A stretch of DNA of 24,000 nucleotides from an uncultured Eubacteriales bacterium. GTDB taxonomy: Bacteria; Bacillota; Clostridia; Christensenellales; QALW01. Position numbers and translations under genes: made by a program. Location: NCBI GenBank assembly GCA_900547955.1, contig URIR01000017.1:14390-38389 (forward strand), in the 5' to 3' direction. The notes beneath the pieces are model-generated. The model was not told the DNA's origin, ran no database searches, and saw only the letters and a list, made by a program, of their open reading frames with translations. This document shows, in pieces, positions 8,576 to 24,000 of the stretch (positions within the stretch are counted from its first letter, which is position 1; every line of letters begins with the position of its first letter).

Positions 8576-8839
8576 TTATTTTCTCAAATTGAGCTTTTCA
8601 ATTATTGTACGGTAGCGCTCTATATCTACTGATTTAAGATAGTTGAGCAAACCGCGGCGCCGTCCGACCATCATAAGCAGACCTCTGCGGGAATGGTGGT
8701 CCTTTTTATTTATCTTAAGATGCTCGTTAAGATGATTGATTCTGTCCGTCAGAATGGCTATCTGCACTTCGGGCGAACCGGTGTCTCCCTCGTGAAGCTT
8801 GTACTCCTGAATAATCTCCTGTTTTCTAGCTTTGTCCAT
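8576..8839 (-). CDS. rpsO: 30S ribosomal protein S15 (87 aa)
   Basis: [68 protein letters not shown] is canonical S15. AAGGAGG RBS (complement of 8848-8854) lies 8 nt before ATG 8839. The longer ORF start at 8893 is rejected. Confidence 0.96.
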
Positions 8840-9068: not shown

Positions 9069-9257
9069 CTAAGCGTCAGGTTTTCTCTTATGCGCCGCCG
9101 AACTCAAGATATTTTGTACCGACGTAGTCTTGCACATTATAATTTCTTTATCATCTCCAATAAAGAAGGTCAAACTGTCGCCGGCATTTATATCCAGCTC
9201 GCATCTTATTTTTACAGGAATCATAATTAAACCGTTCGCACAAATAGTTATCGTCAT
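9069..9257 (-). CDS. AbrB/MazE/SpoVT-fold DNA-binding mini-protein, paralog 1 (62 aa)
   Basis: MTITICANGLIMIPVKIRCELDINAGDSLTFFIGDDKEIIMCKT fits the swapped-hairpin AbrB-domain pattern (G-x-hydrophobic-x-I/L-P-x-x-I-R-x-x-L-x-I-x-x-G-D). Start is taken at ATG 9257, behind the conserved leader AATGAAAGAGGGATT (complement of 9262-9276). Confidence 0.75.
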   Translation of the reverse strand: MTITICANGLIMIPVKIRCELDINAGDSLTFFIGDDKEIIMCKTTSVQNILSSAAHKRKPDA

Positions 9258-9360: not shown

Positions 9361-9503
9361 TTCAGCTAAGGGCCGGCCTAGCGGGGCGGGGCGCGCCGTA
9401 GGGCAAGCTTTCAGCTTGCCCGGGCCGAGCCGGAACGGCTCGGCTACGCGGCCGCAGGCCGCGGACGGCGCGCCCCGCCCCGCTAGGCCGGCCCTTAGCT
9501 GAA
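9361..9503 (-). repeat. GC-rich multi-hairpin element, copy B (inverted orientation relative to A and C)
   Basis: A perfect 39-bp closing stem (9361-9399 pairs with 9465-9503) encloses three hairpins: 9401-9421, 9424-9444 and 9447-9463. The reverse complement of 9446-9464 is identical (19/19) to 11546-11564 of copy C and occupies the same position, directly after the 5' arm of the closing stem. 52 of 60 nt in 9421-9480 are G or C. Confidence 0.9.
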
Positions 9504-9736
9504 ACTCAAAATATTAAGCATTCTGCCCAATCGCCCAAGTAGCTTTTTCTATAATATATTAACAATTTTCTAACAAAATCAATCTTGCGACAATATTTTT
9601 AACTCTATGTCTATTATAAAATAAAGAATGCAAAATGCAATAGGAAGTTATGTTGTAATAATGTTTTAATTGAAATAGATATTACAATTTTGTATTTAAT
9701 ACAAAAATATTGTTGTCAATATATTTTTTATATAAG

Positions 9737-9907
9737 TTAAATTGGTAGTGCATTAATTACAGTCTGCACTTTTGACACTTTGCAAATTATTATCGCATCG
9801 TAATTTATAAAAAATGTCATCAAATCTCCCGCCTTAATATTTAAACGTTTCCTTATTGAAGCTGGAAGCATAATCCTGCCATTTTCATATATAGTAACAA
9901 GCTGCAT
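9737..9907 (-). CDS. AbrB/MazE/SpoVT-fold DNA-binding mini-protein, paralog 2 (56 aa)
   Basis: MQLVTIYENGRIMLPASIRKRLNIKAGDLMTFFINYDAIIICKV. Start is ATG 9907, preceded by the conserved leader AATGAAAGAGTGATT (complement of 9914-9928). Confidence 0.75.
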   Translation of the reverse strand: MQLVTIYENGRIMLPASIRKRLNIKAGDLMTFFINYDAIIICKVSKVQTVINALPI

Positions 9908-10169
9908 ATTAACAATCACTCTTTCATTGATAATTCAGCATAATTTATATATAAACTCTACTAATTCAATAATTTATTGATTATAAAATATATAAATACA
10001 TATTTTGACTATATATGATTTTTCAAAATATTATTTTTATATATTTTATAATTAAACAAATTTCTTTCTTATTTACATGTATTATAACTAACTGCCTTGA
10101 AAAATCAAGAGAAAAGAATGCAATAAATTATCGAATAAAATAGGCTTATACCATAATTTTGACACAAGC

Positions 10170-10628
10170 CTAAAAATCTGACTTTGATACATAAATAATA
10201 TGAATTTTTTTCTTTTGCGCATATTCCAGCGTGCCTGCCGCACCTCCCCAAGGATGCGTTATATATACTACAGCGCAGTCCGAAATGTTTACCAGATATT
10301 TATTTCTCTGCAGAATTGCTATCTTAGGATGATATCTTTCCAGCGCCGGATATATTATCTCGTCATACCGCTTCGCCTTATCTGGATCCACTTTAGGGTA
10401 TGGAGTAACCAGCACGCTTTTTATATCATGCTTTTTCTTCAATTCACACAACACTCCCGCGCACAAAGCGTCAAATTGTCCCATGCCCCCGTTATAAAAA
10501 ACTTTTGTCCCGTTTAATATAAGCTCTTTTACCGCACGATACACGCGCTCTTTAACAGCATTTTTATCATAAACAGTACTATGGCCTATAAAGAAGCAGC
10601 TTGCAAGTAAACTATTTCCCTTTTTCAT
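10170..10628 (-). CDS. SLOG-superfamily protein, DUF1273/YpsA-like (152 aa)
   Basis: The motif order matches DUF1273 proteins as I remember them: CFFIGHS (cf. CxFTGHR), NGGMGQFDALCAGVLCELKKK (cf. GxxxGxDxxAAexVLelK), LQRNKYLVNISDCAVVY (cf. RNxxMVDxSDxxiav) and GGAAGTLEYAQKKK (cf. GGTxxtvxyAkk). Start ATG 10628 has no clear SD and overlaps the upstream RHH gene by 17 nt. The alternative ATG is 10652. Confidence 0.75.
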   Translation of the reverse strand: MKKGNSLLASCFFIGHSTVYDKNAVKERVYRAVKELILNGTKVFYNGGMGQFDALCAGVLCELKKKHDIKSVLVTPYPKVDPDKAKRYDEIIYPALERYHPKIAILQRNKYLVNISDCAVVYITHPWGGAAGTLEYAQKKKIHIIYVSKSDF

Positions 10629-10788
10629 GATATATAAAACGTTCAATCGCATAATTATCTATATGCTTCTTTAATATATTATTTATATATTGGGAAAAAG
10701 AGCGTCCATCCAATTCCGACAGTTCTCTTATTTTTGTTATTATATCTTCATCCAAGGATATACTGACCTTCTGCTTTAGTACACGCAT
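10612..10788 (-). CDS. Ribbon-helix-helix (CopG/Arc/MetJ-type) DNA-binding protein (58 aa)
   Basis: MRVLKQKVSISLDEDIITKIRELSELDGRSFSQYINNILKKHI shows the beta-strand/helix/helix pattern of RHH proteins. GGAGGG RBS lies 7 nt before ATG 10788. The stop TAG (10614-10612) lies inside the SLOG gene start region. Confidence 0.8.
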   Translation of the reverse strand: MRVLKQKVSISLDEDIITKIRELSELDGRSFSQYINNILKKHIDNYAIERFIYHEKGK

Positions 10789-11233
10789 GAATACACCCTC
10801 CTGAATAATATAATAACATAATTTTAGTTTATATTGGATATAATACGACAAAGTAATACAAAATAATAAAAAGTAGTATGAAGTAATATACTATCTTACT
10901 TAATATATTTTATAAAATTAAATATCTGTGGAATAATGTTGCATAAATATATATTTATAATACAATTTTATATATAAATTTATTTTATTCTACTTTTAAT
11001 ATGAATATATATTGATTTCTACGTAATTTCCTATTGCAATTTATTTTAAATCTCTTATAATAGATACGGAAATAAGAAAATTGTTCTTATATAAATTGTT
11101 GTGGAATAATTAGGATTTTTGCTAGTTAAAATTTACATGTATGCTCAAATTGTGTTGTCCGATTATTCATAATTTAAATTGGCATAAAAAACTTATATAT
11201 ATACTAATTTAAATAATGAAAGAGTGATTTTTT

Positions 11234-11458
11234 ATGATACTTGTAACAATTTATGCTAACGGTCAGTTTATGATTCCCTTGCCAATCCGTCAGAGACTTA
11301 ATATTAAGCCTGGAGATTATCTGGCGTTTTTCATCAAAAACGATAAAGAGTTGGTCATGTGTAAAACCTCCGCTATTCAGGATGTTATCATGGCCAATTC
11401 TAAAAATACCATTCAATTTCCCGTAAAAGAGTCTATTAGCTCAAATTCGGGCGACTGA
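11234..11458 (+). CDS. AbrB/MazE/SpoVT-fold DNA-binding mini-protein, paralog 3 (74 aa)
   Basis: MILVTIYANGQFMIPLPIRQRLNIKPGDYLAFFIKNDKELVMCKT. Conserved leader AATGAAAGAGTGATT at 11215-11229. A possible promoter is TTGGCA-17 nt-TACTAA about 35 nt upstream (weak call). Confidence 0.78.
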   Translation: MILVTIYANGQFMIPLPIRQRLNIKPGDYLAFFIKNDKELVMCKTSAIQDVIMANSKNTIQFPVKESISSNSGD

Positions 11459-11476
11459 AAGCTCCAAAAGCTGCTT

Positions 11477-11674
11477 CGCGGGCCCGAAGGGCCCGCGGAC
11501 GCGCCGGATGCCGCGAAGCGGCATCCGGCGCCGGGGGGCGGCGTTCCGCGGCCTGCGGCCGCGTGGCCGGGCCCGTTTACGGGCCCGGCCCAGGGCAGGC
11601 TTCGCCTGCCCGAACGCCGCCCCCCCGGCGCATGGCCCGGCCGCAGGCCGGGCCATGCGCGCTGCGCAAGCGCA
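11477..11674 (+). repeat. GC-rich multi-hairpin element, copy C
   Basis: Extra hairpin at 11477-11497. H0 is 11501-11531 (14-bp stem). P1 is CGGGGGGCGGCGTT 11532-11545 paired with AACGCCGCCCCCCCG 11613-11627. Inner hairpins are 11547-11563, 11565-11590 and 11593-11611. H5 is 11628-11660 (15-bp stem). The element fills the whole convergent abrB3/ribF intergenic space. Confidence 0.9.
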
Positions 11675-11694
11675 AAAAAGCCGCCGCCCAAAAA

Positions 11695-12612
11695 TCAATT
11701 TTCCGCATTAACTCCTGATTTGATTCCACGTGTTGAAAGATACGCTCTTGCTATAAGCTCGTCCTGACAAAGCTGAGACGATAGCTCATCTTTAGAAGAA
11801 AATTTTCGCTCGGCCCTTATACGCTTTAAAAATGAGACGCGCATATCCTTACCGTAAAAATCTCCCGAGACGTCAAATAAAAAGGTCTCTATAGTAATAA
11901 CTCCAGTATCTGAAACAGTAGGGCGCACGCCTATATTAGTCATACCCTGATAATCCCGCCCGTTTATCCGAGCAGCCGTTACATATACACCCCGGGCCGG
12001 AACCAGCTTTTTATCAGAGTACTCAAGATTAGCGGTAGGAAAACCTAAAGTATGCCCCAGCTCCTGCCCTCGTGTCACTTTACCCGCAATAAAATAATTA
12101 TATCCCAGCATCTTTGCAGCAGCGTCTGCCTCCGAATCTAAAAGTCTATTTCGTATAAGCGTGCTGCTTATTCGCTCTCCGTCATCTGTCAGTATTGGTG
12201 GAATTATAAAGGTTTTATATCCATATTTATCTGCCAGGCGCACTATATCGCGCGGCGTACCCGACGCCCTGCAGCCAAACGTATGATTACTGCCTGCAAT
12301 AATCCCTCCCGCGTTAAAGCGCGCACAGATGTAAGCAATATATTCCTCCGGACTCATATTAGCCAGTATACTGTCAAACGTCAGCACCAGACATTCAAGA
12401 CCCGTATTTTTTAGCATGCTTATTCGCTCGTCATTTAAGGTAAGCAGCTTTATTTTTTTGCCCAATACTTCGCGCGGATGACAGTTGAAAGTAAGAATGC
12501 ACGGCTTCATATTCATCTGTCCGCCTATCCGCTTCGCTTGCCTGAATAATTCCTGATGCCCTCTATGCACTCCGTCAAACGTGCCCAGTACCAATATACT
12601 TTTTTTCTCCAT
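11695..12612 (-). CDS. ribF: Bifunctional riboflavin kinase / FMN adenylyltransferase (305 aa)
   Basis: LVLGTFDGVHRGHQEL (FAD synthetase nucleotidyltransferase motif). The C-terminal kinase half has GFPTANL and ETFLFDVSGDFYGKDMRVSFLKRIRAERKF. Confidence 0.95.
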   Translation of the reverse strand: MEKKSILVLGTFDGVHRGHQELFRQAKRIGGQMNMKPCILTFNCHPREVLGKKIKLLTLNDERISMLKNTGLECLVLTFDSILANMSPEEYIAYICARFNAGGIIAGSNHTFGCRASGTPRDIVRLADKYGYKTFIIPPILTDDGERISSTLIRNRLLDSEADAAAKMLGYNYFIAGKVTRGQELGHTLGFPTANLEYSDKKLVPARGVYVTAARINGRDYQGMTNIGVRPTVSDTGVITIETFLFDVSGDFYGKDMRVSFLKRIRAERKFSSKDELSSQLCQDELIARAYLSTRGIKSGVNAEN

Positions 12613-22626: not shown

Positions 22627-24000
22627 ATGAAAAAAGTACCCTACAGATTTTATTTAACCGAGGAGCAGATTCCGACGCAGTGGTATAATCTGCGCGCCGA
22701 TATGCCCGAACAGCCCGACCCAATTATCAACCCGGCCACCATGCAGCCTGCTCAGCTTTCAGATTTGCTGCCTGTATTCTGCGAGGAACTAGCCCGTCAG
22801 GAGCTGGACAGCAAGACCAGATACTTTGATATACCCGGCGAAATTATGGATGTATACCGAATATACCGTCCTGCGCCATTAATAAGGGCTTATAATCTTG
22901 AAAAGGAATTAGATACTCCCGCCAAAATATACTATAAATTCGAGGGCAACAACACCTCAGGGAGTCATAAATTAAATTCCGCGCTTGCACAGGCATATTA
23001 CGCAAAAAAGCAGGGCTTGACCAGCCTGACTACTGAAACAGGAGCAGGACAATGGGGTACGGCTCTTGCCGAAGCCTGTTCCTATTTTGGTCTGCCGCTG
23101 ACCGTATATATGGTTAAGGTTTCATACGAGCAAAAGCCTTTCCGCAAAACAGTCATGCAAACCTTTGACGCAAATGTTATAGCCAGTCCCAGCAACACTA
23201 CGGCGGTAGGCCGCGCAATATTGGAAAAAGACCCTGATACCGGCGGAAGCCTTGGCTGCGCAATTAGTGAAGCTGTAGAAAAGGCTGTAACCACGCCAGG
23301 ATGCAGATATGTGCTTGGGTCAGTACTAAATCAGGTGCTTCTTCATCAATCCATTATAGGCCTTGAATCCAAAAAGGCCATGGAGCTTTTAGACGAGTAT
23401 CCGGATATTGTAATAGGCTGCGCGGGCGGAGGATCCAATTTAGGCGGATTAATAGCGCCGTTTATGCAGGACAAGCTGCTGAAAAAGGCTAATCCGCGTA
23501 TTATCGCAGTAGAACCGGCGTCCTGTCCTTCTCTGACCAGAGGAAAATACGCTTATGATTTCTGTGATACAGGTAAAATAACGCCATTAGCCAAAATGTA
23601 CACACTAGGCTGCGGCTTCATACCTTCCGCCAATCATGCCGGAGGACTAAGATATCACGGAATGTCTCCAATATTATCAAAGCTTTATCACGACGGCTAC
23701 ATGGAAGCCATATCGGTTGAGCAGTCCAAGGTCTTTGAGGCAGCTGTGCTCTTCTCCAAAAAAGAAACAATATTGCCTGCACCCGAATCCGCGCATGCAA
23801 TATACGGAGCAATTCAAGAAGCGCTCCGCTGCAAAGAAAGCGGTGAAAGCAAAACCATTCTCTTTGGTCTTACAGGAACCGGTTATTTTGATATGACCGC
23901 ATATAACGCCTATATTACCGGTAATATGAGCGACTATATTCCCACCGACGAGGATTTGCAAAGGGGCTTTGACGGACTTCCTCAGGTACCTGGCCAATAA
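22627..24000 (+). CDS. trpB: TrpB2-type tryptophan synthase beta-like PLP enzyme (457 aa)
   Basis: The long N-terminal extension (MKKVPYRFYLTEEQIPTQWYNLRADMPEQPDP) is typical of TrpB2. The PLP-lysine motif is GSHKLNSALAQAY and the phosphate-binding loop is GCAGGGSNLGG. AAGGAG RBS. The stop TAA is the last codon of the window. Confidence 0.9.
   Translation: MKKVPYRFYLTEEQIPTQWYNLRADMPEQPDPIINPATMQPAQLSDLLPVFCEELARQELDSKTRYFDIPGEIMDVYRIYRPAPLIRAYNLEKELDTPAKIYYKFEGNNTSGSHKLNSALAQAYYAKKQGLTSLTTETGAGQWGTALAEACSYFGLPLTVYMVKVSYEQKPFRKTVMQTFDANVIASPSNTTAVGRAILEKDPDTGGSLGCAISEAVEKAVTTPGCRYVLGSVLNQVLLHQSIIGLESKKAMELLDEYPDIVIGCAGGGSNLGGLIAPFMQDKLLKKANPRIIAVEPASCPSLTRGKYAYDFCDTGKITPLAKMYTLGCGFIPSANHAGGLRYHGMSPILSKLYHDGYMEAISVEQSKVFEAAVLFSKKETILPAPESAHAIYGAIQEALRCKESGESKTILFGLTGTGYFDMTAYNAYITGNMSDYIPTDEDLQRGFDGLPQVPGQ

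Follow-up and report, generated by a model that had tools for sequence, protein, structure and literature searches.

An Arc/CopG-like ribbon-helix-helix gene overlapping a YpsA-like SLOG gene in a Christensenellales bacterium: a probable repressor and its target

Introduction

When a gene for a small DNA-binding protein overlaps the start of a larger gene, do the two form a toxin-antitoxin (TA) module, or a repressor and its target? We addressed this question for a pair of genes in a 24,000-nt stretch of DNA from an uncultured Eubacteriales bacterium, a member of the gut Clostridia (GenBank assembly GCA_900547955.1, contig URIR01000017.1, positions 14390 to 38389), hereafter called the window, in which a ribbon-helix-helix (RHH) gene overlaps a gene for a SLOG-domain protein. 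The original prediction, drawn from the nucleotide sequence, had described the pair as a candidate TA-like conflict module whose RHH protein neutralizes a SLOG toxin, represses its expression, or both. Comparison with related loci leads us to a plainer answer, namely that the pair is a fairly ordinary repressor-plus-target operon and not a canonical TA system; it is probably a two-gene unit in which an Arc/CopG-like RHH repressor gates a YpsA-like SLOG protein. All coordinates given without a locus label are those of the whole window, and labels such as L022, L023 and L118 to L122 denote the loci compared with it.

YpsA of Bacillus subtilis, the protein to which the SLOG product is likened below, has a paralogue, YoqJ, in prophage SP-beta. 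As reported for YpsA, overproduction of the protein arrests cell division, residues G53 and E55 are important, and the family falls into four branches, linked to gpsB, to phosphoribosyltransferase (PRTase) genes, to NAD salvage, and to conflict systems (PMC6459960). SLOG proteins also occur in a known TA system, the type IV defense system ShosTA, in which a PRTase, ShosT, is the toxin and is countered by the SLOG protein as its antitoxin (PMC11961720, PMC12961424).

Results

Both genes of the pair lie on the minus strand. The RHH gene (10612-10788, 58 aa) starts with the ATG at 10788, which is separated by a 7-nt spacer from a Shine-Dalgarno sequence, AGGAGGG (10796-10802), and ends with the TAG at 10612-10614; the AGGAGG block is kept upstream of the RHH genes in L022, L023, and L121. 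The SLOG gene (10170-10628, 152 aa) starts with the ATG at 10628 and stops at 10170, its 5' end sharing 17 nt with the 3' end of the RHH gene (10612-10628). An alternative ATG at 10652, the choice of gene callers elsewhere, would give a protein of 160 aa and an overlap of 41 nt; besides these two ATGs, no in-frame start codon precedes the conserved CFFIGH motif, and inspection of the sequence revealed no Shine-Dalgarno at either of them. The 17-nt overlap suggests that translation of SLOG may be coupled to that of RHH. Directly after the SLOG stop, a terminator scan detected an intrinsic-terminator-like hairpin and T-tract on the same strand (10131-10172), with a 13-pair stem followed by TTTTATT. 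Because the open reading frames (ORFs), Shine-Dalgarno, and overlap all read as stated, the pair was correctly described as such, including the RHH ribosome-binding site and the lack of one ahead of SLOG.

The arrangement of the two genes, as seen in relatives, is not constant. Co-directional RHH genes were found in the window, in L022/L118, where stop and start overlap by 4 nt (TTGA), and in L120/L121, where they lie 1 nt apart, and it is only in these lineages that the single-operon layout, which in a type II TA system should be conserved among homologues, is seen. Two RHH paralogues stand divergent from SLOG, and are not co-transcribed with it, in L023/L122 and in L119. The comparison of L118 with L119, which represent two strains of one species, amounts to a natural regulator-swap experiment. 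L118 and L119 match in their flanks at 99.4-99.9% identity, and no difference separates their SLOG proteins (146/146 aligned residues). Upstream of SLOG, L118 (2604-3005) has 400 bp with one co-directional RHH gene, whereas L119 (785-2996) has 2.2 kb with a gene for a 466-aa AAA-type ATPase and two RHH genes divergent from SLOG; the variants part at the SLOG start codon. The SLOG-proximal RHH proteins of L118 and L119 are 55% identical in their cores, and their C-terminal tails are unrelated. One SLOG protein is thus accompanied by different RHH proteins in opposite arrangements, and since the same SLOG occurs with swapped RHHs, a cognate antitoxin that neutralizes via a C-terminal extension is not what would be expected here, as it should not be so exchangeable.

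The RHH protein itself appears to be a minimal DNA-binding protein. Its AlphaFold2 (AF2) model (predicted local distance difference test [pLDDT] score of 84) consists of an N-terminal strand and two helices, residues 14-27 and 31-56, with no further domain, and the top 45 Foldseek matches of this model are all RHH proteins; its structural neighbors comprise plain repressors (CopG, Arc, AmrZ) and N-terminal domains of antitoxins. The turn between the helices, DGRSFS, contains the G-x-S/T turn of the CopG/Arc/MetJ superfamily, and a PHROG match to an Arc-like repressor was obtained with an E value of 4e-4. In Pfam, the protein fell below both relevant thresholds (DUF6364, 25.8 versus 27.3 bits, E of 1.5e-5; RHH_1, 16.7 versus 20.5 bits, E of 7e-3), while 13/13 of its homologues match DUF6364 and 10/13 match RHH_1. 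Three residues of the DNA-reading strand, K5, K7, and S9, do not vary among the 13 homologues. Within the clade the tails that follow the RHH core measure 7-18 aa and are not conserved, that of the 58-aa window protein being at most 13 aa long and that of L023 nearly absent; neither the alignment of homologues nor the AF2 model contains a conserved C-terminal toxin-binding extension. What we found, then, in place of an extension that co-varies with its toxin, is a bare RHH that can be exchanged for one with 55% identity. We take the protein to be a minimal DNA-binding protein of Arc/CopG size, presumably an autorepressor. The nearest homologues outside the clade (51-60 aa, ~75% core identity) stand alone, apart from one that lies ahead of a Uma2-family gene, and none adjoins a SLOG gene. 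In L106 (4001-4770), the gene for a 60-aa RHH homologue is followed after 21 nt by a Uma2-family (PF05685) gene, and the two may form a separate RHH-led pair.

Operator-like repeats were found upstream of the RHH genes. In the window, L022, and L023, which represent three species, each RHH gene is preceded on its coding strand by a 12-mer, ATACTACTTTWT. The operator-like region of the window (10848-10893, minus strand) holds two copies, ATACTACTTTTT at 10868-10879 and a degenerate one matching at 9/12 positions, GTATTACTTTGT, at 10848-10859, 20 nt downstream of the first; the first copy is overlapped by an inverted repeat, TAGTAT-N8-ATACTA (10874-10893), of which one match was found against 0.03 expected. 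L022 has a single ATACTACTTTWT copy, and L023 has two exact copies 20 nt apart together with a one-mismatch copy (3 against 0.19 expected, with 0/200 shuffles reaching 3). Shorter repeats of the ACTACTTT type occur in tandem at a spacing of 10 nt, three copies in L119 and two in L121. As L022 has no exact copy of the palindrome, TAGTAT-N(0-12)-ATACTA, we regard the 12-mer direct repeat as the conserved motif. Alignment with relatives further points to a candidate extended -10 element of the RHH-SLOG operon, TGtTATTAT (10810-10818, minus strand), with counterparts at the same distance to the Shine-Dalgarno in L023 (TGcTATAAT), L022 (TGcTATACT), and L121 (TGtTATAAT); the upstream regions thus have in common the order of repeats, a TGnTATAAT-like extended -10, and AGGAGG. 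In the divergent variants SLOG has a near-consensus promoter of its own, TTGACA-17-TATAAA, whose -10 box is overlapped by a palindrome, TAGTATAAAATACTA, made up of the same half-site. The invariant K5, K7, and S9 fit a conserved operator and so support the RHH protein as transcriptional gatekeeper of SLOG in both architectures. That part of the original prediction in which the RHH protein represses is therefore supported, by the repeats upstream of the RHH genes and by those over the SLOG promoter in the divergent variants. Repeats with a promoter-like element would suit the autoregulation of a type II TA system as well as that of a plain repressor.

The SLOG protein was analyzed in the same manner. 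Its AF2 model (pLDDT of 89) has as best Protein Data Bank match in Foldseek B. subtilis YpsA (2nx2; E of 2.4e-8, TM score of 0.79), followed by DprA, ShosA, MCP (molybdenum cofactor carrier protein), and LOG, all with a probability of 1.00; the matches to the Rossmann domains of DprA (4ljk, 3uqz) had E values of ~3e-5 to 2e-4 and that to ShosA (8zva) had one of 4e-5. A search of the same database with the single sequence returned noise only, and YpsA was reached with a profile of the family (E of 8e-4 against 2nx2), in which the family motif G..G.FD aligns with the YpsA ligand motif G53-x-E55. The Rossmannoid fold and a ligand site that combines a glycine-rich loop with an acidic residue place the protein in the SLOG superfamily. 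Like YpsA (PF06908/DUF1273), it is a stand-alone SLOG domain of ~150-180 aa with the glycine-rich loop followed by an acidic residue, aligned with G53/E55 of the YpsA GxD/E motif. Unlike YpsA proper, to which it is only 14% identical, it scored below the Pfam gathering score for PF06908 (20.3 versus 27.7 bits, E of 6e-4), and its relatives gave only weak matches to NCBIfam PRK13660. Its family has a dedicated repressor partner and lies mainly on mobile elements, and neither a gpsB-like gene nor YpsA-proper synteny was found in the islet that carries the pair or in the flanks. The domain assignments of the original prediction, then, held at the level of fold for both proteins, whereas PF06908, RHH_1, and DUF6364 all stayed below threshold.

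A word-indexed search returned only 8 SLOG relatives; an exhaustive profile search yielded 7504 representatives of 50%-identity clusters at E of ≤1e-3 and 3096 at E of ≤1e-10. Among 138 representatives, 15 positions are at least 80% conserved (G15, H16, F44, G47, G50, F52, D53, K64, Y77, D89, P94, A104, I105, N109, and A137), with G47, G50, and D53 reaching 98-99%, and all 15 are kept in the window protein, which speaks for a working ligand-binding or active site. We considered a LOG-like catalytic motif, as PWGGAAGTLE resembles PGGxGTxxE, and rejected it, this stretch not being conserved in the family. A large family, of ~7,500 clusters, has thus been missed, as far as the members scanned go, by Pfam thresholds, NCBIfam, and PADLOC, the last two having no model for them; one relative in RefSeq carries the generic name "SLOG family protein." By analogy, the protein is most likely a YpsA-like binder or processor of a nucleotide-derived small molecule.

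We then asked which regulators accompany SLOG genes, using 85 nonredundant SLOG genes (80 GTDB species-representative loci together with the earlier representatives) and a second sample of 46 loci from IMG/VR and metagenomes. Recurrent linkage of homologous SLOG genes to RHH genes, which the original prediction had offered as a test of itself, was largely absent: RHH adjoins SLOG at 8 of ~131 family loci, all in one clade and at one chromosomal locus, and among the 85 genes only the window, L022, and L023 have an RHH homologue. The usual partner is a divergent XRE-type helix-turn-helix (HTH) gene, found at 74/85 loci at a median distance of 108 nt upstream; a co-directional upstream HTH was found at 0/85. 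The 46 further loci gave 36 with a divergent HTH, 5 with RHH, and 5 where the contig ends upstream of SLOG. Altogether, a divergent XRE-HTH is the partner in ~90% of the non-RHH loci, a layout that we know of in no type II TA system, and the SLOG outgroups nearest the RHH clade (44-46% identity) likewise carry HTH. Since HTH is near-universal and the outgroups have it, RHH is a lineage-specific replacement of HTH.

HTH-type loci usually lie on integrative or mobilizable elements, mostly of gut Clostridia, among genes for relaxase, MobC/NikA, AAA_25, and DUF6061 proteins and beside type I restriction-modification, Mrr, or HipA-like cargo. At 65/124 SLOG loci a co-directional second gene overlaps SLOG, usually by 4 nt, or starts no more than 40 nt after it; a few of these second-gene calls are likely spurious ORFs. 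The partners vary and include a 171-aa membrane-anchored Cys-rich protein, a 138-152-aa family without a Pfam match, and a 144-aa OmpR-type winged HTH (wHTH); examples of loci with such a coupled gene are L054 (4273-4788), L060 (1546-1962), and L012 (1188-1622). In Monoglobus pectinilyticus (L102; NZ_OY725739.1, 88232-98663), a 38%-identical SLOG gene in a small islet is preceded by two divergent HTH genes and followed by two more, a layout that parallels that of the window, with small DNA-binding proteins around SLOG, in a different DNA-binding fold. A neighbor cluster, x102, was judged from the sequence to be an antisense ORF artifact of the HTH gene and dropped, and a phage origin was considered and set aside, as IMG/VR yielded just 8 loci and GenBank phages 3. 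PADLOC (PADLOC-DB v2) gave no defense-family match for the window proteins, including RHH and the AbrB-like proteins described below, nor for six other SLOG members, and the partner HTH matched only its generic HTH regulator models; the proposed defense module is not supported.

The pair lies in an AT-rich islet. On the minus strand of the window, the conserved cluster nusA-infB-rbfA-nrnA-truB-ribF ... rpsO-pnp is interrupted between ribF (11695-12612) and rpsO (8576-8839) by ~2.8 kb of DNA with a GC content of 24-34% (9500-11500), against ~45-55% in the flanks, confirming the foreign composition noted before; the islet thereby splits a truB-ribF/rpsO-pnp cluster that is otherwise universal. 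It contains five small genes, encoding three AbrB/MazE-like proteins, one RHH, and one SLOG, and its ORFs include no mobility or transfer genes. All the RHH loci examined with flanks (the window, L022/L118, L023/L122, L119, and L121) lie in an islet adjoining rpsO, and wherever both flanks are visible they sit between ribF and rpsO; RHH-SLOG linkage is thus confined to one islet and has therefore essentially one evolutionary origin. The ORFs have stayed intact in at least five lineages, with identities of 53-60%, and strains of one species are 98.4-99.6% identical across the islet. The cassette is stably inherited, in an islet that rearranges internally. Across the window, L022, and L023, identities amount to 95-98% for PNPase and S15, to only 71-75% for RibF and TruB, and to 55-65% for the islet proteins.

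Of the three AbrB/MazE-like genes, one (11234-11458, plus strand, 74 aa; TIGR01439, E of 2.9e-10; Pfam MazE_antitoxin, E of 2.7e-4) is divergent from the RHH gene and counts as an islet component. A second (9737-9907, minus strand, 56 aa; TIGR01439, E of 5e-12; MazE_antitoxin, E of 1.4e-9, above threshold) lies 3' of SLOG in a separate transcription unit, and the third (9069-9257, minus strand, 62 aa) matches TIGR01439 with an E of 1.5e-6. One divergent and two downstream AbrB-like genes thus flank the pair; AbrB-like neighbors had been part of the original prediction. The three are domain-only proteins of 56-74 aa with mutual identities of 49-56%; each gene has a long AT-rich upstream region, and none has a toxin partner. 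An AbrB-like gene lies 3' of SLOG in all RHH-clade lineages, with three copies per locus wherever the contig is complete, and copies lying in inverted orientation might be behind the inversions by which relatives differ.

The structured GC-rich elements that had been noted on either side are also present, both of them inside the AT-rich islet. The first (9361-9503) is a nested palindrome with a 39-bp perfect outer stem around three hairpins (minimum free energy [MFE] of -145.6 kcal/mol, z of -14). The second (11460-11694), directly 3' of the ribF stop, is a multi-hairpin element with a similar core and three flanking hairpins (MFE of -199 kcal/mol, z of -10.5); both have GGCCGCAGGCCGCG in common (3 matches against 0.05 expected). 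In L022 and L023, ribF is flanked by GC-rich ORF artifacts. Rfam gave no match in the islet, the GC-rich elements included; the sole match in the window is a T-box leader (RF00230, 22304-22557, plus strand, 115 bits) upstream of an ORF starting at 22627.

Discussion

Our data are best accommodated by an RHH repressor that gates a YpsA-like SLOG protein, a reading that we consider probable. It is carried by both folds, by the way the operon is built, by repeats kept among relatives, by a regulator that accompanies SLOG throughout the family, and by the swap of regulators that occurred in nature. The RHH protein would be made first and SLOG would follow from the same mRNA by translational coupling. 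RHH dimers would then occupy tandem ATACTACTTT-type repeats overlapping the extended -10 region of the operon and keep both genes low, an autoregulation in which RHH would act on DNA and not on the SLOG protein. SLOG would be the regulated product, with a Rossmannoid pocket formed by strictly conserved residues (GH after strand 1, GxxGxFD after strand 2, and K64, Y77, D89, and N109) and predicted to bind or process a small molecule derived from a nucleotide, in line with the NAD/ADP-ribose-like ligand proposed for YpsA; by the same analogy, de-repressed SLOG could modulate growth or cell division. In this clade RHH replaces the divergent XRE-HTH that accompanies the SLOG family almost everywhere else. 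With Arc, Mnt, CopG, and omega the RHH protein shares a size of 45-60 aa, a bare strand-helix-helix, operator subsites at helical-turn spacing, and, presumably, autoregulation of a short operon; it differs from them in being DUF6364-like and in its putative operator sequence, which is specific to the clade.

Several observations weigh against this reading. The tight stop/start junctions in three lineages resemble those of type II TA operons, and many antitoxins are among the Foldseek neighbors of the RHH protein. The promoter of the pair and its -35 element are weak or unclear in the window, and a simple promoter scan called none there. Repression, coupling, and ligand binding, and with them any output, are moreover steps that we infer. 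Finally, a dedicated repressor on nearly every member of the family is also what one would expect if the product did harm when freely expressed.

These points bear most directly on the possibility that the pair is a TA-like or abortive module, in which SLOG arrests growth or division and RHH both represses the operon and neutralizes SLOG by direct binding. For such a module speak the small DNA-binding gene in first position with its stop/start overlaps, the antitoxins Rv0298, CopA_SO, AtaR, KacA, and ParD among the fold neighbors of RHH, the regulator dedicated to nearly every family member, and the reported block in B. subtilis division upon YpsA overproduction (PMC6459960). The protein does resemble RHH antitoxins (RelB, ParD, CopA_SO, AtaR/KacA) in its RHH N-terminal domain, its leading, overlapping gene, and its promoter-proximal repeats, but it lacks their conserved toxin-binding extension, its tail being short and variable; its orientation to SLOG varies, and an identical SLOG tolerates RHHs that are 55% identical. 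Its homologues are orphan genes, the norm of the SLOG family is a divergent XRE-HTH and not a TA layout, and none of the SLOG, RHH, and AbrB-like proteins has a PADLOC match. ShosTA likewise has two genes, including a DprA-like SLOG protein, and ShosA is a structural match, but the window islet has no PRTase gene, the partner here is an RHH, and in ShosTA it is the SLOG protein that acts as antitoxin (PMC11961720, PMC12961424). We therefore do not uphold neutralization of a SLOG toxin by the RHH protein, and regard a TA-like module as unlikely.

Three further explanations concern what SLOG itself does. It might be the sensory partner of the nearby RHH, AbrB-like, HTH, or wHTH proteins, a nucleotide signal switching these regulators and SLOG serving as a ligand-controlled switch for mobile-element cargo. 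Several small regulators do surround SLOG in independent lineages (RHH and three AbrB-like proteins here, four HTH in Monoglobus), with a co-directional downstream HTH gene at 14 loci and an overlapping downstream OmpR-type wHTH gene at ~15, but roughly every second locus lacks a coupled partner, and where there is one it is often a membrane-anchored protein and not a regulator; we hold this to be quite improbable. Equally doubtful is a small DprA-like protein that binds or processes mobile-element DNA, for instance in single-stranded DNA protection or recombination after transfer, and survives here as a domesticated remnant. The strong matches to the DprA Rossmann domains, the predicted isoelectric point of 9.4, which makes the protein basic as DprA/Smf is, and the relaxase, MobC/NikA, and AAA_25 genes around family members agree with it; the best match, however, is YpsA and not DprA, the SAM and winged-helix domains of DprA/Smf are missing, and the pair lies in a chromosomal islet without transfer genes or competence context. 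The pocket residues also differ, and the strictly conserved H16, D53, Y77, D89, and N109 look like a small-molecule site. It seems highly improbable that the pair is merely what is left of an old insertion, now decaying and without function: foreign AT-rich composition, missing mobility genes, and rearrangements between relatives would be in line with decay, but the ORFs are intact across lineages, all family-conserved residues are kept, and the promoter/operator architecture is conserved.

The repressor-and-target reading is of modest novelty. What is new is the displacement of an HTH regulator by an RHH at a repressor-controlled YpsA-like SLOG gene; we found no description of a regulator-SLOG cassette in the searchable literature, including the available portion of PMC6459960. 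A more interesting by-product is the family itself, with its near-universal dedicated regulator, its mobile-element and restriction-modification context, and its variable coupled partners. There is a slim chance that a small repressor with a stand-alone SLOG protein makes up a conflict or dormancy module that is widespread on the mobile elements of Clostridia and has so far escaped description, the window holding a domesticated chromosomal copy of it. In that case the repressor would hold in check a SLOG effector that senses or processes a nucleotide and that, upon challenge of the element or the cell, halts growth or division or else switches the expression of cargo. At the least, the locus cautions that a small DNA-binding gene overlapping a bigger one is a layout insufficient in itself to call a TA system, and it offers a testable handle on the role of YpsA-like SLOG proteins outside Bacillus.

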